Origin: Alphaproteobacteria bacterium
Lineage (GTDB): Bacteria > Pseudomonadota > Alphaproteobacteria > CADEGL01
Length of the DNA: 64,000 nt
Assembly (NCBI GenBank): GCA_046349515.1
Contig: JAXMCE010000001.1
Coordinates: 138,186-202,185, forward strand
Direction: 5' to 3'
The position numbers and the translations under genes are program-made. Under the pieces are notes generated by a model that searched no databases, had not been told where the DNA came from, and saw only the letters and a program-made list of their open reading frames with translations. Shown in pieces: positions 29,908-54,758 of this stretch (positions are counted from its first letter, which is position 1; each line of letters starts with the position of its first letter).

Positions 29908-30039
29908 GGCGCACCTTATGCCCAAGCCCTTGGGGGCTGGCAAGGAAAACAGTCAAAATGTTGCGTCTGATGCGGTTCCGATGGCGAACGCGAGAGGCGG
30001 GAGTCGGCGCGGGTAATTGCAGCCGGGCCGCGGCAAAAC

Positions 30040-30225
30040 TAAGATCGCCGGCGATGGCTCCCCTCTTCGGGGATTAAAAGGGAACGCCGGTCGGGCCCCT
30101 AGGGCCCAAGCCGCGGCTGCCCCCGCAACTGTGAGCGGCGAGCCGATCGCCAATACGCCACTGGGACACCGGGAAGGCGGCGATCGGTGACGACCCGCAA
30201 GCCAGGAGACCTGCCATCGCAAGGG
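30040..30225 (+). promoter_or_regulatory. Cobalamin (B12) riboswitch
   Basis: Conserved elements appear in canonical order: AAAAGGGAACGCCGGT (30075-30090), GCTGCCCCCGCAACTGTGAGCGG (30117-30139), GCCACTGGGACACCGGGAAGGC, and the B12 box CAAGCCAGGAGACCTGCC (30199-30216). It lies 5' of the porin gene on the same strand. Confidence 0.8.
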
Positions 30226-30343
30226 GTCACGTGCGAGCGCGCTGGGCGGGGTGCACCGGCGGGAATCGACGCCCCCCGCCGGGGGGGCAACGTCGGATCC
30301 GGTTCGCGGGTGACGTGGAATGTCTTCCGCAACCGAGGTCCGC

Positions 30344-43540: not shown

Positions 43541-45724
43541 ATGACGCCAGGGATCCGATCGTTGACGAAACGCCTGCTTCGATTGACATCGGTCGTTGGC
43601 CTGCTGCTCCTCGCGGCGGCGTTCGCGGCCGTGGACACCGCGGCCCAAGCGGCCACGCCGAGCGCGCGCGCCAATCAGGCCAGCGTGCGGGGCAAGCACG
43701 CACAGAAGCGCGCGGGACGCCAGCCAGCGAAGTCGGCGAAGCCCACGAAACAGGCCGCCCGCGCCGCAAAGCCCGCCCCCATCGAGGCCGATAGCGGGCT
43801 CAGGGGTGCGCTCGCGTCCGCCGAGAAAGGCGACTGGATCACCGCCCGCCGCATGGCGGCCCCCTCGCCGCCCCTTTTCAAGATGGTCCGCTGGATGGAA
43901 ATCAAGCAGACCGGCTCCGGCGCCTTCTTCGAGGAGATCGCGCGGTTCATCGATGAAAATCCGGACTGGCCGTCGCTCGACACGCTCCGCCGGCGGGCCG
44001 AGGAGACCATGGCCCCGGCGACCCCGGATGCGTCCGTGCGCGCCTGGTTCGAACGCGGCCCCCCGCGCACGGTCGAGGGCGCCTCGCGCTACATCGATCT
44101 GCTCGCCTCGGCCGGCGACGAGCAAGGGGCGACGGCGCAGGCGAGGCGCGCCTGGACGAACATCACCCTCACGCCCCGCCAGGAGCAGGATTTCTACGGC
44201 CGGTACGGCGCGCGCCTCAGGCCCGAGGACCACGTCGCGCGGCTCGACCGGCTTCTCTGGGACGGCCAGGAAGCGGGCGCCCGCTCCGCCATGGCCTATG
44301 TCGATGCCGACCAGCAGGCTTTGGCCGAGGCGCGCTTGAAGCTACGGCGCGAGGACAAGGGTGCGGAGCACGCCATCGACCGGGTGCCACAGGCGCTCCG
44401 ATCCCATCCGGGCCTTCTCTATGAACGCGTGCGGGCGCTGCGCCAGAAGGGCATGGACGACGAGGCGCGCGCCATCCTCCTCAGCCTGCCGCGGGACAGC
44501 GGCCGTCCCGATCTCTGGTGGAGCGAACGCAGCACCCAAACGCGCCGCGCGCTCGCCCTCGGCCTCTATTCCGACGCCTATAAGATCGCGAGCGAAAACG
44601 GCCTGAGCGAAGGCTCCGCCTTTGCGGAGGCCGAATGGCTCTCGGGCTGGATCGCGCTCCGCCATCTGAACAACCCTGGCCAGGCCCGCCAGCACTTCGA
44701 TGCCATGGCCGCCAAAGTCGCGAGCAAGGTCAGCAAGGCGCGCGGCGGCTATTGGACCGGACGGGCCTATGAGGCGATGGGCAATGCCGAGCAGGCGCGC
44801 CACAGCTACAGCCAGGCCGCGCGCCACGGCATGACGTTCTACGGACAGCTCGCGGCCGCGCGCCTCGGCAATACACGGCCGCGCCTCGTCGAGCCCGCGC
44901 CCACGGCCGAGGACGAAGCGGCATTCCGCGGCAAGGAAGTCGTGCAGCTCGTCCGGGTTCTCAATAGCCTCGGCCGCGCGGACCTCGCCGATCCCTTCCT
45001 CGAGCGGCTCGTCGAGACGTCGCCGACCGTGGGGCAGGAGGCTCTCGTCGTCGCGCTCGCCCATGAGATCAAGCGGCCCGACATCGCCGTTCGCCTCACG
45101 CGCCGTGCGCGCCGCGACGACGCGAATTTCGTGACGCTCGGCTATCCGGTGGTCACGCTGCCGCACGGCGATGCGCCCGAGCGCGCCCTCACCTACGCCA
45201 TGATCCGCCAGGAAAGCGCCTTCAACACCAACGCGGTCAGCCGCGCCGGCGCCCGCGGCCTTCTCCAGCTCATGCCGCAGACGGCCAAAGTGGTGGCCAA
45301 GACCTTGAAGGTGAAGTACACGGCCGATCGCTTGAACAACGATCCGGCCTTCAACCTCGAGCTCGGCCGCAGCTACATGGACCGGCAGATCTCGGACTTC
45401 CGCGGCTCCTACGTGCTCGCGATCGCGGCCTACAACGCGGGGCCCGGCCGCGTGCGCTATTGGATGCGCACGCTCGGCGATCCGCGCCGCCACGACATCG
45501 ACGTCATCGATTGGATCGAATCGATTCCCATCAGCGAGACGCGCGACTACGTGCAGCGCGTGCTCGAAGGCGTCCAGGTCTATCGCCTGCGCCTCGGCGA
45601 AAAGACGGAGACGGCCCTCATCGAGCAGGACCTCATGCGCGGCCGCGGCCAGGCCGAGGCGCCCGTGGACGTGATCTGCGCGCCCGACAGCGACGATGAC
45701 GACTCGCAGAACAAGTCGTGCTGA
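43541..45724 (+). CDS. slt: Soluble lytic murein transglycosylase (Slt70-like)
   Basis: Signal peptide, a long superhelical N-terminal domain, and a C-terminal SLT catalytic domain (IRQESAFN...GLLQLMP...AYNAGPGRV). Confidence 0.8.
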   Translation: MTPGIRSLTKRLLRLTSVVGLLLLAAAFAAVDTAAQAATPSARANQASVRGKHAQKRAGRQPAKSAKPTKQAARAAKPAPIEADSGLRGALASAEKGDWITARRMAAPSPPLFKMVRWMEIKQTGSGAFFEEIARFIDENPDWPSLDTLRRRAEETMAPATPDASVRAWFERGPPRTVEGASRYIDLLASAGDEQGATAQARRAWTNITLTPRQEQDFYGRYGARLRPEDHVARLDRLLWDGQEAGARSAMAYVDADQQALAEARLKLRREDKGAEHAIDRVPQALRSHPGLLYERVRALRQKGMDDEARAILLSLPRDSGRPDLWWSERSTQTRRALALGLYSDAYKIASENGLSEGSAFAEAEWLSGWIALRHLNNPGQARQHFDAMAAKVASKVSKARGGYWTGRAYEAMGNAEQARHSYSQAARHGMTFYGQLAAARLGNTRPRLVEPAPTAEDEAAFRGKEVVQLVRVLNSLGRADLADPFLERLVETSPTVGQEALVVALAHEIKRPDIAVRLTRRARRDDANFVTLGYPVVTLPHGDAPERALTYAMIRQESAFNTNAVSRAGARGLLQLMPQTAKVVAKTLKVKYTADRLNNDPAFNLELGRSYMDRQISDFRGSYVLAIAAYNAGPGRVRYWMRTLGDPRRHDIDVIDWIESIPISETRDYVQRVLEGVQVYRLRLGEKTETALIEQDLMRGRGQAEAPVDVICAPDSDDDDSQNKSC

Positions 45725-47724: not shown

Positions 47725-48891
47725 TCAGTTTTTGTGAACACGAACACCTGCCTCAATGAACTTCATAGGGTCTTGTGGTTCGTCGTTCAGCAGCACTTCG
47801 TAGTGGAGGTGCGGACCCGTACTGCGCCCCGTGCTGCCCATCTCGCCCACGACATCGCCCGGGCCGACCCATTGTCCGGGCCCCACGCCGATCTGGCGAA
47901 GGTGGCCATATCGCGTGCGAACGCCCAGGCCATGGTCGATCTCGACCATCTTCCCGAAGCGGTCCCGCCAGCCTGCAAAGCTGACGAGCCCAGGCGCCGT
48001 GGCATAGATTGGCGATCCGAGCGGCCCGGTCAAGTCAAGACCGTTGTGAATGGCCAGCCCCCCGTTGAAGGGGTCCTGGCGCTGGCCAAAACCGCTGGCG
48101 ACCTCGTACTCCGGCATGGGCGCGGTGAGCGGGAGGGCGCGAAGCAGCGTCCGCAGCTCGTTCCAGCGGCCGAGACTGTAATCGAGCTGGACCCGTCCCG
48201 TGTCCTCGGACACGCGGCGCAGCATCTCGGGGCGGAACGCGACGAAGGGACCGCCGAGGCCACCGCGGCCCTTCGCCGAATCGATGAGCCGATCGGCATC
48301 GAGCCCGGCCGAACGGATGGCGCGCTCCGCTTCGCCGATATTGGCCGCGGTGCTCTCCGTCAGCTTCTTGATGAGGTCGGCCTCGCTGGCTTGGAGGCTC
48401 GCCACGCGCCGCTCCAACGACTTGATGCGCGTGACGAGGGCGCTGTCCGGCTCGCTCGAGTCGGGCGCCGGGCCGGGCTCGAGCGCGAGCCGGCTTTCGA
48501 CGGCCGCGATCTCCGTCCGCACGAGCGCGTCGCGGCCGCTGAGCGCCCGCAGCGCCGCCTCGAGCGCGTCCAGCTGGCGCGCCACCGGTTCCGGAACGCC
48601 AGCCTGCTTCACCGGCTCGCCATCCGAATCGACGGCTTTCGTCTTGAGAGACGTCAGACTTTGCCGGAGCGCGCGGCTCCGCTCGATCACCGTGGCAAGA
48701 TCCCTGCCGCCGTCATCGAGCTCGCGACCGATCGCCGTGAAACGGTCGCGGTAGTCTCCGAGCGAACCGAGGAGGATTTGATGCGAGGCCCGCGTATCGG
48801 CGAGGGCGTCGGTCGTCTTGGAGAGATAATGTCCGCGGACGATGAAGGTGGTGACACCGGCGACGACGACGGCAAATCCGGCCAGTGCCAT
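47725..48891 (-). CDS. M23-family (LytM) peptidoglycan metalloendopeptidase with N-terminal TM and coiled-coil region
   Basis: C-terminal LytM domain (HNGLDL...GxxVxAxAxGxV...IDHG...YGHL...GSTGRSTGPHLHYE). N-terminal TM helix and a long coiled-coil, as in EnvC-like activator/peptidase proteins. Confidence 0.8.
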   Translation of the reverse strand: MALAGFAVVVAGVTTFIVRGHYLSKTTDALADTRASHQILLGSLGDYRDRFTAIGRELDDGGRDLATVIERSRALRQSLTSLKTKAVDSDGEPVKQAGVPEPVARQLDALEAALRALSGRDALVRTEIAAVESRLALEPGPAPDSSEPDSALVTRIKSLERRVASLQASEADLIKKLTESTAANIGEAERAIRSAGLDADRLIDSAKGRGGLGGPFVAFRPEMLRRVSEDTGRVQLDYSLGRWNELRTLLRALPLTAPMPEYEVASGFGQRQDPFNGGLAIHNGLDLTGPLGSPIYATAPGLVSFAGWRDRFGKMVEIDHGLGVRTRYGHLRQIGVGPGQWVGPGDVVGEMGSTGRSTGPHLHYEVLLNDEPQDPMKFIEAGVRVHKN

Positions 48892-49572: not shown

Positions 49573-50436
49573 ATGCCAAAACCGTTCGCGGAAAAGCTCT
49601 ACAAGGGCTATGCCCAGACCTTCGACATCGTCGGCGAGATGATCGCGGACGAACAGACTCCCTTCCAACGCTTGCATGTCTTCGACACGCCCTTGAACGG
49701 CCGCGTGCTCGCGCTCGACGGCATCGTCCAGCTCTCCGATCGCGACGAGTGCGTCTATTCCGAGATGCTCTCCCATCTTCCGATTCTGGAATTGGGCGAT
49801 GTGCGGCGCGTGCTGATTGCCGGCGGCGGCGACGGCGCCATCGCGGAAGAGGTGCTGAAGCACAAGACGGTCGAGGCCGTCGATCTCGTCGAGATCGACT
49901 CGCACGTGGTCGAAGCCTCGAAGAGGCATTTCGCCCATGTGAGCGGCGCCGCCTTCTCGGATCCGCGCCTCACCGTGCGCATCGAGGACGCCTTCGAGTT
50001 CTTGAAGGAGCCCGGCGCCGCCGGCCGCTACGACCTCGTCGTGACCGACCGCCCGGACCCGGTGGGCCCGGCGCAGGTCCTTTTCGCGACCGAGTTCTAT
50101 GCGCTCGTGAAGCGCGCGCTCAGCCCCCGCGGCATCGCTGTGTTCCAGAACGGCGTGCCGTTCTACCAGGACGACGAGCTCGCGGAGGCGCATCGGCAAT
50201 TGGGCAGCGTGTTCCGGCACCACGGCCTCTACCTCATCGTCGTCCCCACCTATGTCGGCGGATTCCTGGCCGTGACCTGGGCCAGCGAGGGGACGGTTCT
50301 CGGAACGGGAGTCACGCGCGAGACGCTCGCCGAACGCCTCGCGGGCGCGAGAATCGCGACAGAGTACTACACGCCCGAGGTGCATCTTGCCTCCTTCGCG
50401 CTTCCGGCCTGGGTCAAGCGCAAATTGGGAGCGTGA
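49573..50436 (+). CDS. speE: Spermidine synthase-like polyamine aminopropyltransferase
   Basis: VLIAGGGDGAIAEEVLKH (the GGGDG motif), DLVEID, and DRPDPVGPA are SpeE-family signatures. RBS GAAGGA is 6 nt upstream. Confidence 0.75.
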   Translation: MPKPFAEKLYKGYAQTFDIVGEMIADEQTPFQRLHVFDTPLNGRVLALDGIVQLSDRDECVYSEMLSHLPILELGDVRRVLIAGGGDGAIAEEVLKHKTVEAVDLVEIDSHVVEASKRHFAHVSGAAFSDPRLTVRIEDAFEFLKEPGAAGRYDLVVTDRPDPVGPAQVLFATEFYALVKRALSPRGIAVFQNGVPFYQDDELAEAHRQLGSVFRHHGLYLIVVPTYVGGFLAVTWASEGTVLGTGVTRETLAERLAGARIATEYYTPEVHLASFALPAWVKRKLGA

Positions 50437-50604
50437 GAAGCGCGCATCTCTCGCGCCCGGCGCGGCGTCTTTTCTTCCGCACGCATTCCGCGCACACTCT
50501 CACCCATCGACGCACCACGGCGATCGGTGCGGTCCGGATCGCGACATGTAAGAGCCGACAGACCAACGGTCGGCCGGTCGCATCCGCGAGCGCTGGAGGG
50601 GACG

Positions 50605-53505
50605 ATGGGGCGGTTCGCGCGGTGGCTCGCCTTGGCCTGCCTTCTTGCGGCGTTGGATGCGCACGCGGCCGAGATCTATGTCACGTCGCGCGCGGCTCCC
50701 ACGATGCCCGTCTTGCTCGATCCCGCCAATCTCGGCCAGCCCGAGCGCCGGCTGCCGGTGCTCTTCATCCACGGCCACAACCCGGATTCGGCCGACGACA
50801 CGGCCGCGGCGGGCCCCAACTACCAGCAGAATTTCTGGAATCCCCTGGGCGCGCTGACCTCGTTCAAGCGCACGCTCGACCACGGAGACAACGCGGGCCT
50901 CGGCATCGAGCCCTACTTCATTCGCTTCCAGGATCAGAACCGCTCGATCACCGAGGACGCGCGCGACATCGGCGAGGCGATCGACCTCATCGTTCAACGC
51001 CACAACCCGGGATTTGCCACGGCCAGCGCCACGACCAGTCCGCCCGTTCAGGTCGTCATCGTGGCCTACAGCAAGGGCACGATCAGCGCGCGACAATATC
51101 TCAAGAGCCTCACGACGGCCGTGCAGGACGCCGGCGGCACGCCGCTGCCCGCGCCGCGCCCGGCCTACCGCCCTGTCTCGGAGTTCATCGCCCTCTCTCC
51201 GCCCAATCATGCGATCAACCTTCCGATCCTCGGCCAGAGCCTGAACAGCCTGTCGCGGCAGCAGCTCAACAACGGCTATGGCGGCGTGCTCTGCAACGCT
51301 CTCGGCGCGCCCGCGGCCAGCGACTACATCCAGATCCTCAACGGCCACCCGATCGCCGACACACAAAGCGCGCCCTTCGGGTCCTTCGCGTCCGAAGCGC
51401 CGGGCAGCCGACCGCCCCTCGCCTCGTCCCCGCCCGGCGCGCCTCCGACGCCACCCTCGGCCGGCACGCTCTACACGACGATCTATGCGACCAACGACGC
51501 CGATCTCGTGGGCGGGGACAATCCTTCGAGCGACTGCCAGGGACGAAAGGTCGCGCGCAACCTCGCGCCCGACGCCGTCAACATCCCGCTCGGCGGGATC
51601 GGCGGCGCCAATGAGGGCGAGGTCCATGCGAACACCGTGCACACCGCGTCCGCGATCTGCCTCGCCCTCCTCACCGCCGTCCATCACCGGGCGCCGCCCA
51701 CCGGCCAGAGCTGCCCGACCAATGCCGATGGCGTGCCCGTCGTGCCGCTCCCGCCGCAAGCCGCGGCCATGCTGACGCTCGACATCTCCGGCAGCATGAA
51801 CCTGCCGGCCTGCCCCGGCTGTCCCACGCGGCTCGCCGTCCTCAAGGATGCGGTCGAGATCTTCGCGCGCCTGTGGTCCGTCATGGGGCGCGATGAAGAC
51901 GCGCTCGGCGTCACCTATTTCCGCACGAGCGTCGATCCGTTCGCGATCAACGGCAACGTGCTGCCCTCGATCGGTTTCGTCGACGCGCTGATCGCCGACA
52001 TCCGCGCCCAGGACATCCAGCCGCAGAACCTCATGACTGCGATGGGCGGCGGACTGCAGAGCGCGGTCGACGCGCTCCGCGCGGCGCCTGCAACCACGGG
52101 CCCCCGCCACGTCATTCTCTTCACGGACGGCATGCAGAACGTGAACCCCATGGTGCTGCCCAATCCGGCGGATCCCGCGCACCTCGTGATCGACAACGAT
52201 GCGACTCCGGGCCGCACCGCCTCGAACGTCGCGCCGACGGTACCGCCGATGACGCTCAACGCGCTTGGCGGCATCTCGATTGACACCATCGGAATCGGCA
52301 CGGGTCAGGCCTTCCTCGACCTGCTCGCCGATATCGCGGGCGAGACCGGCGGCGACACCAAGGCGACCGTAGCAGCGAACGACGATTTGCGCCGCTTCTT
52401 CGTCGAGGAGCTTGTCAACGCCTTGAGGGGATTCAGCCCGCAGCTCGTCGGCTATCGGCGCGGCACGCTTGGGGATTCGCGCGCGAACGAAGAGTTCATC
52501 GTGAACCGGGGCGTACGCAAAATCGCCTTCATGCTCAACTGGCCGCATGGCAAACCGCTCGACCTCCGCATTCTCAAGGACGGAACCGACGTGACGGGTG
52601 CGGCTCGCGTCGTCACGGGTGAATTCTTCCGCATCTACAGCTTCGCATTTCCGGGCACGGGGGGCGTCGCCGCGCCGGACGGACGCTGGCGGATGACGAT
52701 CGGCGGCAAGCCCAAGACAGCCTACGAAGCGGCGGCCCTCGCGGACGATTCGACGCTCGCCTACAGGGTCCGGTTGGGCGCGCGGCGCGAGAAAGTCGAC
52801 CAGCCAATCGCGCTCGACGTCCAAGTCTTGGGCGACAAGCAGCCCATCGACGGCACCGTGACAGTGACGGCCACGATCGAGCGGCCTCAACGGGCCGCCG
52901 GCAACATTCTCGGCCCCGTCGCGTTGTTCGAGGGGACGAAAACGGCGGGCGAGCCGGGCCAATCCTTCGCCGAACGGCGGCATCTGGCTCTTCCCGGCGA
53001 TTCGTCGCGGTGGGCGATGCTCGCCAATCCGCTCCGATCGACCATCAGACTCGAGCCCGACGGCAAAGGCAATTTTCATGCGACGATCGGCGATGTGACG
53101 ACACCCGGCCTGTATCGCGCGATCGTTCACATCAAGGGGGAGGACAGCCGCCTCGGCGCCTTCGAGCGCACGGAAACGGCGACGACCGTCGTGCGCTTCA
53201 ATGAAGCCGATCTCAACCGATCGCAGATCCTCCTCCGGCCTCTCCCGAACAAAAGCGTGATCGAATTGACGCTTCGGCCCCGCGACGCGCATGGCAACCT
53301 TCTGGGTCCCGGCCTGCCGAGGGAGGTCGTGGTCGCGCTCGCGGGCGGCCGCAGGGTCGACGGCCCCGCCGATCTCGGCGACGGGCGCTATCGCTTCGCC
53401 CTCTTCGCCGCCAAGGGCGAGGACGCGGCCATCGCGATCGAGGTCGCGGGCCGGTCACTCTTCAAGGGCACGCTCAAGGAACTGCGCAAGCGCTCGGGCG
53501 GATAG
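50605..53505 (+). CDS. Large secreted multidomain protein: N-terminal lipase-like alpha/beta hydrolase + Cys-rich linker + von Willebrand factor A domain + C-terminal beta-rich region
   Basis: Signal peptide MGRFARWLALACLLAALDAHA with RBS GGAGGGGA. VLFIHGHN plus nucleophile elbow AYSKGT (AxSxG). The vWA MIDAS motif LTLDISGSMN is followed by ...ILFTDGMQN. The C-terminal ~330 aa have no recognisable motif. Confidence 0.7.
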   Translation: MGRFARWLALACLLAALDAHAAEIYVTSRAAPTMPVLLDPANLGQPERRLPVLFIHGHNPDSADDTAAAGPNYQQNFWNPLGALTSFKRTLDHGDNAGLGIEPYFIRFQDQNRSITEDARDIGEAIDLIVQRHNPGFATASATTSPPVQVVIVAYSKGTISARQYLKSLTTAVQDAGGTPLPAPRPAYRPVSEFIALSPPNHAINLPILGQSLNSLSRQQLNNGYGGVLCNALGAPAASDYIQILNGHPIADTQSAPFGSFASEAPGSRPPLASSPPGAPPTPPSAGTLYTTIYATNDADLVGGDNPSSDCQGRKVARNLAPDAVNIPLGGIGGANEGEVHANTVHTASAICLALLTAVHHRAPPTGQSCPTNADGVPVVPLPPQAAAMLTLDISGSMNLPACPGCPTRLAVLKDAVEIFARLWSVMGRDEDALGVTYFRTSVDPFAINGNVLPSIGFVDALIADIRAQDIQPQNLMTAMGGGLQSAVDALRAAPATTGPRHVILFTDGMQNVNPMVLPNPADPAHLVIDNDATPGRTASNVAPTVPPMTLNALGGISIDTIGIGTGQAFLDLLADIAGETGGDTKATVAANDDLRRFFVEELVNALRGFSPQLVGYRRGTLGDSRANEEFIVNRGVRKIAFMLNWPHGKPLDLRILKDGTDVTGAARVVTGEFFRIYSFAFPGTGGVAAPDGRWRMTIGGKPKTAYEAAALADDSTLAYRVRLGARREKVDQPIALDVQVLGDKQPIDGTVTVTATIERPQRAAGNILGPVALFEGTKTAGEPGQSFAERRHLALPGDSSRWAMLANPLRSTIRLEPDGKGNFHATIGDVTTPGLYRAIVHIKGEDSRLGAFERTETATTVVRFNEADLNRSQILLRPLPNKSVIELTLRPRDAHGNLLGPGLPREVVVALAGGRRVDGPADLGDGRYRFALFAAKGEDAAIAIEVAGRSLFKGTLKELRKRSGG

Positions 53506-53594
53506 CCGGCCCGGCCGATTCGGCCCATGGCGCGAAATGCGCCGCCATTGTATTGCTCTCGCCCGATGGGTGATCCAAGCGAGAGGAGGCCGTG

Positions 53595-54758
53595 ATGGCC
53601 GAAAAGAGAAACCGCCCCGGCTTCGCGACCCGGTCGATCCACGCGGGACAGCACCACGATCCCACGACCGGCGCCGTCATCACGCCCATCTACGCCACCT
53701 CGACCTACGCGCAAGAATCACCGGGCGTGAACAAGGGATTTCTATACAGCCGCGCCCACAACCCCACGCGCTTCGCCTTCGAACGCTGCATCGCCGACCT
53801 CGAGGACGGGCAGGCCGGGTTCGCCTTCGCGAGCGGTCTCGCCGCGATCGCCGCCGTGCTCGAGACGCTCGACGCGGGCAGCCATCTCGTCACCGGCGAC
53901 GATCTCTATGGCGGCACGTATCGAATGCTGACCAAGGTCCGCAACCGCTCCCAAGGGCTCCAGGTGAGCTTCGTCGATCCGACCGATCTCGCCGCGCTCG
54001 AAGCCGCGCTCCGGCCCGAGACGCGCATGATCTACATCGAGACGCCGACCAATCCCTTCCTCAAGGTCGCCGACCTCGAAGCCATCGCGGCTCTCGGCCG
54101 GCGACGCGGCATCACGACCGTCTGCGACAACACCTTTGCCTCGCCTTGGGTGCAGCGCCCCCTCACCCATGGTTTCGACATCGTGCTCCACTCGGCGACC
54201 AAGTACATCAACGGCCATTCGGACATGTTGGGCGGCATCGTGGTCGTCGGCGCCAACACCGCGCTGGCCGACCAGTTGAAGTTCATCCAGATGTCGACCG
54301 GCGGCATTCTCTCGCCTTTCGACAGTTTTCTTGCGCTCCGCGGCGTCAAGACCCTGCCGATCCGCATGGAGCGGCATTGCGAAAACGCCGAGGCCATCGC
54401 GGCCTGGCTCGCGCGCCATCCCCGGGTCGAGCAGGTGTTCTTCCCCGGCCTTGCCAGCCATCCGCAGCACGCGCTGGCCAAGCGCCAGATGCGTGGCTTC
54501 GGTGGCATGATCAGCGCCACGCTCAAGGGCGACATCGCGGAAGTGCGGCGCGTGCTCGAGCGGTGCGAGCTCTTCGCGCTCGCCGTCAGCCTCGGCGGCG
54601 TCGAAAGCCTCATCGAGCACCCGGCGCTCATGACGCATGCGTCCCTGACGCCCGAGGCGCGCGCGGCGCTCGGCATCGGCGACAGCCTCATCCGCCTCTC
54701 GGTCGGGATCGAGGACGTCGACGACCTCATCGCGGATCTCGACCAGGCCATGAGGTAG
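53595..54758 (+). CDS. Cys/Met-metabolism PLP-dependent enzyme (cystathionine gamma-synthase / gamma-lyase / O-succinylhomoserine sulfhydrylase family)
   Basis: TPIYATSTY, and the PLP-lysine region SATKYINGHSD (Lys after T). Full-length fold-type I gamma-family conservation. ATG 53595 has [12 protein letters not shown]. The track start is GTG 53592. Confidence 0.8.
   Translation: MAEKRNRPGFATRSIHAGQHHDPTTGAVITPIYATSTYAQESPGVNKGFLYSRAHNPTRFAFERCIADLEDGQAGFAFASGLAAIAAVLETLDAGSHLVTGDDLYGGTYRMLTKVRNRSQGLQVSFVDPTDLAALEAALRPETRMIYIETPTNPFLKVADLEAIAALGRRRGITTVCDNTFASPWVQRPLTHGFDIVLHSATKYINGHSDMLGGIVVVGANTALADQLKFIQMSTGGILSPFDSFLALRGVKTLPIRMERHCENAEAIAAWLARHPRVEQVFFPGLASHPQHALAKRQMRGFGGMISATLKGDIAEVRRVLERCELFALAVSLGGVESLIEHPALMTHASLTPEARAALGIGDSLIRLSVGIEDVDDLIADLDQAMR

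Follow-up and report, generated by a model that had tools for sequence, protein, structure and literature searches.

Several described groups of proteins each resemble, in part, the product of one gene in the stretch of DNA studied here, 64,000 nucleotides from an Alphaproteobacteria bacterium (contig JAXMCE010000001.1; the whole stretch, 64 kb in length, is called the window below). The gene encodes a protein of 966 residues, predicted to be exported, in which a lipase-like alpha/beta-hydrolase domain (the head) is followed by a von Willebrand factor A (vWA) domain with a metal-ion-dependent adhesion site (MIDAS) and by a stalk of immunoglobulin-like (Ig-like) sandwiches. Secreted minimal lipases (MAS1, 5h6g; 3w9b; 7v6d; BlEst2 of Bacillus, 6wpx; LipA, of the Pfam family Lipase_2) share with the head a Sm-x-Ser-x-Sm elbow, an HG motif, the order Ser-Asp-His, and export. 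Identity to these lipases is 13-19%, however, and the window protein differs from them in bearing a vWA domain and an Ig-like stalk behind the head and in having invariant motifs of its own. In BlEst2, a chain of 450 residues, 207 residues could be aligned to the head. The nearest families by sequence are Palm_thioest, PGAP1 and DUF676, which strip acyl chains from lipid-modified molecules. These families are reached through distant relatives of the head, the window protein itself being below detection, and they are eukaryote-centred deacylases that, unlike the window protein, have no vWA partner.

Lipolytic enzymes tethered to the bacterial envelope are also known. In EstA a GDSL enzyme is joined to an autotransporter barrel of 12 strands; PlpD combines a patatin with a POTRA domain and a barrel of 16 strands. 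The idea of an envelope-tethered lipolytic enzyme is common to these proteins and to the family described here, some members of which end in an outer-membrane barrel, but the window protein has neither a barrel nor the catalytic folds of EstA and PlpD. Bacterial MIDAS adhesins (Mfa5, PilB, RrgA, SpaC, PitA, the vWFA domain of LapA and the Catenulispora structure 4fx5) have a complete MIDAS, as the window protein does, and likewise combine vWA and Ig-like domains on exported proteins. Unlike it, they sit at pilus tips or are giant surface adhesins, and they lack an enzyme head; pilin, sortase and type I secretion signals are absent from the window protein. Complement factor B and C2 join a vWA domain to a serine protease and are known for an intramolecular switch. 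In CLCA1, which is secreted, the order of domains is that of the window protein: a hydrolase head, a MIDAS vWA domain, and beta-rich/FnIII-like domains. A cryo-EM preprint describes CLCA1 as a compact hydrolase-vWA-beta-rich body and proposes regulation by vWA-mediated allostery (doi 10.1101/2025.10.18.683246). The CLCA head is a eukaryotic zinc metallohydrolase, whereas the head studied here is an alpha/beta-hydrolase, and a Pfam scan of the window protein gave no CLCA match. We treat the likeness as one of domain order, an analogy of design, with homology shown for the vWA domain at most.

Full-text literature searches found no paper on a fusion of a lipase or esterase with a vWA/MIDAS domain, and none of the solved structures aligns over more than about one quarter of the protein. 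The initial annotation of this gene had suggested that the fusion is not a described family, a suggestion that stood up in Pfam, NCBIfam, the PDB sequences and the literature searches. In the literature searched, the joining of a serine esterase-type head to a complete MIDAS domain is undescribed for bacteria. Each part has a known fold, and precedents exist for the design. Other bacteria place different heads on the vWA-stalk scaffold, an example of head swapping, and its C-terminus takes three forms (no anchor, a transmembrane helix, an outer-membrane barrel). The proteins may matter to lipid or polymer processing, or to envelope remodelling, by uncultured bacteria.

A lipase-like head, a MIDAS domain and a stalk

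We modelled the protein with AlphaFold at full length (predicted local distance difference test, pLDDT, 89.9; predicted template-modelling score, pTM, 0.83) and as the head alone (pLDDT 93.4, pTM 0.93). The structural matches of the head were MAS1 lipase from Streptomyces (5h6g, score 20.1), lipase B from Lasiodiplodia (7v6d, 19.8), lipase B from Candida antarctica (3w9b, 19.2), BlEst2 (6wpx, 18.0), the polyhydroxybutyrate (PHB) depolymerase PhaZ7 (5mlx, 17.3) and the phospholipase PlaB (6zth, 16.3). At the level of the model, these matches show that the head has the alpha/beta-hydrolase fold, the core that the initial annotation had read from the letters.

Conservation was followed in two alignments, one of the window protein with 42 full-length homologs (43 sequences) and a wider one of 28 heads drawn from all architectures. 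The oxyanion-hole residues H56, G57 and H58 are invariant in both (43/43 and 28/28). Ser156, the proposed nucleophile, is present in all 43 full-length sequences and in 26 of the 28 heads. Alignment with hhalign placed the elbow onto Ser77 of B. subtilis LipA (E 1.7e-4), over 29 columns only; since this alignment is confined to the elbow, it leaves the Asp and the His unconfirmed. The proposed triad acid and base, Asp300 and His341, stay invariant in the 28 heads spanning all architectures. We assign the base to His341 rather than to the neighbouring His346 because the latter is Lys in 3 of these 28 heads. Other residues of the head that do not vary among the 43 sequences are N201, H202, E264, R269, R314, N319, C352 and C370, and the motifs SPPNHG, EAPGSR and GRxxAxNL are invariant and the head's own.

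How the head relates to curated families was seen mainly through its distant relatives. A phmmer search with the window protein found nothing similar among PDB sequences. Lipase_2 (PF01674; cut-off 20.3) matched 3 of the 43 aligned members weakly (best E 3.4e-4) and the window protein not at all, and its cut-off was passed only by two distant relatives, P0197 (24.8) and P0198 (24.3). Palm_thioest (PF02089; cut-off 26.8) was passed by the distant P0206 (30.3) and P0204 (28.3), and DUF676 (PF05057; cut-off 20.3) by P0197 (25.1), while for PGAP1 (PF07819; cut-off 24.3) the distant P0226 fell just short at 24.1; the window protein was unmatched by all three. The most distant head relatives, 520-690 residues long with a WD40/PD40 propeller before the hydrolase, form the bridge to these curated families. 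When the head was searched with phmmer against 1.84 billion representatives (clusters at 50% identity), 123 proteins were found at E <= 1e-3 and 69 at E <= 1e-30. Judged by sequence, the head belongs to a rare and sharply bounded family, a neighbour of Lipase_2, the palmitoyl-thioesterases, PGAP1 and DUF676 and a member of none of them. It is thus a rare and well-delimited alpha/beta-hydrolase family to define, outside Pfam and NCBIfam, with clear candidate catalytic residues and a confident model.

The vWA domain adopts the Rossmann-like vWA fold. Among the 43 aligned members, 35 match VWA_2 (PF13519) and 17 match VWA (PF00092) at E <= 0.01, and the family profile matches vWA chains in the PDB (4rck at 5e-7, PilB at 4e-6). 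The closest structures include the pilus-tip and surface adhesins Mfa5, PilB, PitA, SpaC, RrgA and LapA, and complement C2 is also among the matches. All five MIDAS residues (D393, S395, S397, T478 and D508) are present in every aligned sequence; the motif is complete, and its DxSGS part is intact as the initial annotation had it. The CPGC motif that directly follows is conserved in the architecture of the window protein and in those with other heads, and is absent from a clade with a divergent vWA domain; DxSGSM is retained in all of these. A simple pattern match found DxSGS in 38 of the 44 head-family representatives of at least 800 residues. The NCBIfam scan of the window protein returned VWA_BatA_Lepto only, and we rejected a BatA/BatB-type vWA protein on the score (15.9 bits against a cut-off of 380).

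The C-terminal third had been described as about 330 residues of beta-rich sequence without a recognisable motif. It is indeed all-beta in the model, but the absence of motifs did not hold. With the family profile, matches were obtained to FdeC (4e9l, Ig-like domains, 1.1e-5) and to a filamin repeat (2ds4, 0.0099), and a Pfam scan of the 43 aligned members found Invasin_D3 in 10 and Filamin in 5, although the C-terminal region of the window protein alone gave no Pfam match. The last domain (residues ~872-956) is of the invasin-D3/filamin type. From profiles and model together, the region is a stalk of Ig-like sandwiches. Shorter forms from Acidobacteriota (L003/L015, L011, L016 and L022; ~826-865 residues) stop after '...TVVRS', and since they lack the final invasin-D3-like domain, that domain is dispensable.

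The N-terminus has the n-h-c pattern of a signal peptide ending in AHA/AE, which agrees with the initial annotation. This leader is the sole hydrophobic window of the whole protein, and all aligned homologs open with a comparable leader followed by a conserved EVYL strand. There is no usable lipobox, and we rejected a lipoprotein because Cys12 stands too close to the start of the leader and is not kept by the homologs. At the other end, the window protein has a soluble tail with neither a hydrophobic nor a barrel segment. Because an anchor is absent, the copy in the window should be soluble, either in the periplasm or released.

Six cysteines are found in the mature protein. C230 and C311 are invariant in all heads examined, C352 and C370 are both present in 16 and both absent in 7 of the 28 heads, and C403 and C406 of the CPGC motif are both present in 41 and both absent in 2 of the 43 full-length sequences. 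The six therefore look like three predicted disulfides (C230-C311, C352-C370 and C403-C406), of which the last, a CxxC, could be a disulfide or possibly a metal site. The mature cysteines fall into conserved or co-varying pairs, as would suit an oxidising location reached by export, and we infer that the protein is Sec-exported and disulfide-bonded. Every motif quoted in the initial annotation was found (VLFIHGHN, AYSKGT, SDCQGR with C311, SCPT with C370, DISGSM, CPGC and FTDG), as was TAMG with T478. The Cys-rich linker that it had placed between hydrolase and vWA domain does not exist as a module, the first two cysteine pairs lying in the hydrolase domain and the third in the vWA domain.

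Relatives and modular distribution

Among 5.8 billion protein clusters we found 211 relatives, and over 100 of these cover 95-100% of the length of the window protein at 40-53% identity. Their database names are merely 'hypothetical' or 'VWA domain-containing'. In 185,579 species genomes we found 80 loci, all of them in metagenome-assembled genomes and 0 in cultured isolates, with a best match 53% identical. The loci are spread over Acidobacteriota, Alpha-, Beta- and Gammaproteobacteria, Planctomycetota, Verrucomicrobiota, Desulfobacterota, Rokubacteria/Methylomirabilota, Bacteroidota and Gemmatimonadota. The fusion of hydrolase and vWA domain is thus retained in many phyla, over the whole length of the protein. 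To judge by the titles of the records and the labels of the assemblies, the genome copies probably come mostly from soil, groundwater and sediment. One full-length copy (L028; contig DASRWT010000085.1, 102,670 bp) lies in a bin that carries the name of an archaeon, Candidatus Nitrosocosmicus. It is closest in the alignments to copies from Rokubacteria and Methylomirabilota bins (L027 and L036), which points to binning contamination or transfer.

We sorted the architectures by domain-wise tblastn and extraction of open reading frames (ORFs), and four types were distinguished. Type A, that of the window protein, has the hydrolase, the vWA domain and the stalk, ends in nothing or in a transmembrane helix with a basic tail, and occurs in many phyla. 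Type B has another head on the same vWA-stalk (vWA 47-55% identical) with about 150 residues at the end that close on Phe, and is found in Bacteroidota, Gammaproteobacteria, Gemmatimonadota and others. Its heads were assigned by Pfam to Peptidase_S8, BNR_2, a Sortilin-like propeller and SprB repeats, and examples with the ending of ~150 residues and a terminal Phe are L037, L038, L043, L044, L046 and L080. An OMP_b-brl (PF13505) ending was identified in L044 and also in three proteins with the hydrolase head (L073, P0150 and P0156). Type C, from Desulfobacterales and Scalindua, joins the hydrolase to a divergent vWA domain that bears DxSGSM and to a stalk, followed by a transmembrane helix that the Scalindua copy lacks. 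Type D, from NC10 and Nitrosomonadaceae, is the hydrolase alone (410-445 residues) with a C-terminal transmembrane helix or an aromatic tail. By this distribution, the vWA-stalk is an independent evolutionary unit that takes various heads and anchors, and the hydrolase prefers, without requiring, a MIDAS-bearing partner.

On the long contigs examined, and after clustering of the flanking ORFs, no conserved neighbour of type A genes was found across phyla; the two most populous neighbour clusters consist of large, generic families, and syntenic blocks occurred only in related Desulfobacterales. Beside genes of the window type, neither a MoxR ATPase nor a secretion system nor an immunity-like gene was found, whether in the window or at the homolog loci. 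A MoxR-vWA or defence system was rejected on the grounds that the protein is exported and no AAA+ ATPase gene adjoins. The initial annotation had also raised the idea of an effector, which is unsupported, the gene's context showing neither a secretion system nor a toxin.

A protein of 320-360 residues with a leader-like N-terminus adjoins vWA-stalk genes that lack the hydrolase at nine loci in several phyla (L038:10185-11198, L041:1721-2797, L046:4588-5574, L047:4075-5037, L048:5037-6071, L050:4594-5595, L055:3645-4619, L078:3865-4899 and L086:4659-5639). Where this was checked (L038 and L046), the vWA-stalk gene was propeller-headed. The small proteins are 29-36% identical to one another, give a faint Pfam signal (BamB/PQQ_2), and are absent beside hydrolase-headed genes; they could be partners of the propeller-headed sub-architecture.

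Models for the function of the fusion

We favour a model, to which we give a probability of roughly 0.55, in which the protein is exported and cleaves acyl esters while a MIDAS-dependent scaffold holds or positions it. The intactness of the gene, its folds, the conserved motifs and the modular distribution are shown directly; catalytic activity, binding of metal and ligand, and a division of labour between head and scaffold we infer as follows. The head, with a Ser156-Asp300-His341 triad, would hydrolyse acyl esters in lipid, lipid-modified or polyester substrates. The MIDAS would hold a divalent cation, the cation would capture an acidic group on a partner or a surface, and this capture would tether or orient the enzyme. 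The Ig-like stalk would be a spacer from an anchor that the window copy does without. The vWA-stalk half is best seen, from its distribution, as a reusable scaffold, with the hydrolase as one head among several. By analogy, the protein may then work like a secreted small lipase or deacylase attached to a MIDAS adhesion module.

Several observations weigh against this model. Residues 1-380 of the window protein have no match among Pfam or NCBIfam models, and its vWA domain scores 25.5 bits against VWA_2, where the cut-off is 27. In a minority of the family (L030, L032, P0143, P0150, P0153, P0173, P0195 and P0200) the nucleophile is replaced by Gly, and because of this some members would function without catalysis. 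Anchored relatives carry either a C-terminal helix with basic residues behind it or a small non-autotransporter barrel, endings that in a diderm point to the periplasm rather than to the cell surface. This weakens a simple reading as a surface adhesin-enzyme and makes adhesion to targets outside the cell uncertain. Finally, the pTM of 0.83 suggests a compact multi-domain body, which fits a regulatory vWA domain equally well.

This last point bears on an alternative that we consider possible, if doubtful, in which the protein is a regulated enzyme: a ligand or metal at the MIDAS would shift the conformation of the vWA domain and so switch the hydrolase on or off within the molecule. A pTM of this height over 966 residues suggests fixed packing between domains, and the hydrolase stays joined to a MIDAS vWA domain even where the vWA subtype is a different one, in Desulfobacterales. 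Complement C2 is among the structural matches of the vWA domain, and vWA allostery is what the CLCA1 preprint proposes (doi 10.1101/2025.10.18.683246). The same vWA-stalk, however, bears unrelated heads that include the non-enzymatic SprB, which generic holding explains more easily, and some relatives consist of the hydrolase and a membrane anchor alone, so that the head needs no vWA domain.

We are similarly tentative about a periplasmic envelope enzyme that would deacylate a lipoprotein, a phospholipid, lipid A or a lipid-linked intermediate, with the vWA-stalk docking it to an envelope partner. Relatives with a signal peptide, a C-terminal helix and Arg/Lys residues would face the periplasm while tethered to the inner membrane, others end in the small, non-autotransporter OMP_b-brl barrel, and the nearest Pfam relatives (Palm_thioest, PGAP1 and DUF676) are deacylases by annotation. 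The neighbourhood in the window is also rich in envelope genes (M23, SLT and DUF748/YhdP-like), but these neighbours are not conserved elsewhere and their presence may be coincidence. In structure, moreover, the head is best matched by lipases that are secreted and by a PHB depolymerase that is extracellular, and the sister heads (subtilase, BNR and SprB) are, by their annotation, probably more typical of extracellular or surface proteins.

A broader reading, which we think rather unlikely, would make the vWA-Ig-stalk a general chassis on which uncultured bacteria of many phyla mount interchangeable envelope or secreted heads. Ligand binding at the MIDAS, with its adjacent CxxC, would switch or aim the head, as a bacterial counterpart of CLCA and factor B. 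The heads would be the lipase-like hydrolase, subtilases, BNR/propeller domains and SprB repeats, and the chassis would be built around a hydrolase family that is not yet filed.

Returning to the favoured hydrolase, the loss of its nucleophile in some relatives could also be taken to mean that the hydrolase fold merely binds and that the protein is a pure MIDAS adhesin, which we judge very unlikely. Among the several relatives with Gly at position 156, P0153, P0173 and P0195 also lack Asp300, and P0173 and P0195 lack HGH too; the closest structures to the vWA domain do include pilus-tip and surface adhesins. Against this, Ser156, Asp300, His341 and HGH are invariant in the window protein and its 42 homologs, and because decay is confined to a minority subclade, these residues appear to be under selection outside it. 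The joint loss of Ser156, Asp300 and HGH is the pattern expected of one catalytic unit that is dispensable in a few lineages, and the members of the Gly-156 subclade are probably pseudoenzymes. Several of them end in an aromatic tail that resembles an outer-membrane barrel, and Pfam confirms a barrel only for P0150.

An artefact (two genes, a pseudogene, or the wrong strand or frame) can be set aside, for although an ORF of 930 residues lies on the opposite strand and an upstream GTG extends the frame by 26 codons, the gene has no internal stops, more than 100 homologs span 95-100% of its length, the reverse ORF is unmatched, and the ATG has a ribosome-binding site and agrees with public gene calls. 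An autotransporter esterase (type V secretion) was also rejected, since the window protein has no C-terminal translocator barrel and OMP_b-brl is not an autotransporter domain.

The gene and its surroundings in the window

The coordinates of the gene, its domains and motifs, and the features around it are collected in Table 1. As the initial annotation had it, this is a single gene of about 970 codons, and a split into two genes or a frameshift is excluded by the uninterrupted frame and the full-length homologs. The longest ORF in frame opens at GTG 50527, 26 codons upstream of ATG 50605. The ATG is the better start, and we prefer it because GGAGGGGA lies upstream, a public gene call (P0001; 100% identical, 966 residues) agrees with it, and the signal peptides of the homologs begin there. 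The identical 966-residue product has been called in two public metagenome assemblies.

Table 1. Positions of the gene, its parts and neighbouring features in the window.
Feature	Position	Strand	Remarks
Whole gene	50605..53505	+	966 codons and stop, translated uninterrupted
Ribosome-binding site GGAGGGGA	50595..50602	+	GGAGG core ends 5 nt 5' of the ATG; read from sequence
Signal peptide, residues 1-21 (MGRFARWLALACLLAALDAHA / AEIYV)	50605..50667	+	n-h-c sequence pattern; signal-peptidase-I type, predicted
Alpha/beta-hydrolase domain, residues 22-365	50668..51699	+	lipase-like; cap between beta6 and beta7, ~residues 200-287
HGHN, residues 56-59, oxyanion-hole 'HG' motif	50770..50781	+	closes strand 50-56 (beta3) in model
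Nucleophile elbow AYSKGT, residues 154-159	51064..51081	+	between strand 150-155 and helix 157-168 in model
Asp300, proposed triad acid	51502..51504	+	after beta7 (288-295); invariant
His341, proposed triad base	51625..51627	+	after beta8 (325-329); invariant in all sets
vWA domain, residues ~385-610	51757..52434	+	Rossmann-like vWA fold
MIDAS loop 1, DISGS (D393, S395, S397)	51781..51795	+	invariant 43/43
CPGC (C403, C406)	51811..51822	+	directly after MIDAS loop 1
MIDAS Thr478 (TAMGGG)	52036..52038	+	invariant 43/43
MIDAS Asp508 (FTDGMQNV)	52126..52128	+	invariant 43/43
Beta-sandwich (Ig-like) stalk, residues 611-966	52435..53502	+	all-beta in model from residue 611
Terminator-like hairpin 3' of speE	50451..50475 (hairpin 50451-50465)	+	consensus match only; separates speE from the gene
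Terminator-like hairpin and T-rich tail	53528..53554 (hairpin 53528-53544)	+	23 nt past the stop; consensus match only
speE	49573-50436		precedes the gene
Cys/Met-metabolism pyridoxal-phosphate (PLP) enzyme	53592-54758		follows the gene
Antisense ORF, 930 residues	50500..53292	-	no match in family search
SLT lytic transglycosylase	43541-45724	+	envelope gene
Alpha/beta-hydrolase (Abhydrolase_6/Abhydrolase_1), 288 residues	46435-47301	+	3.3 kb upstream
M23 peptidase	47725-48891	-	envelope gene
DUF748/YhdP-like, 985 residues	55257-58214	-	envelope gene
Cobalamin riboswitch	30038-30232	+	120 bits, cut-off 31.5; upstream of ORF starting 30320 (+)

The gene lies between speE and a metB-like gene for a PLP enzyme, and it stands alone there with a ribosome-binding site of its own, as had been proposed. 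It looks monocistronic because terminator-like hairpins follow both speE and the gene itself. The G+C content of the gene equals that of the window (67.9% for both), and on this match we rejected a recent horizontal transfer into this genome. We treated the antisense ORF as a by-product of the 68% G+C content, one that could mislead annotation based on ORFs. No tRNA or rRNA genes were found within the 64-kb window.

Envelope genes lie on both sides of the locus, encoding the SLT lytic transglycosylase, the M23 peptidase and the DUF748/YhdP-like protein, and such surroundings are not conserved beside the gene in other genomes. The alpha/beta-hydrolase gene upstream encodes an ordinary member of that fold, and nothing links it to the fusion, whose head matched no hydrolase model in the scan that identified this neighbour. 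The cobalamin riboswitch, further upstream in the window, is likewise unrelated.

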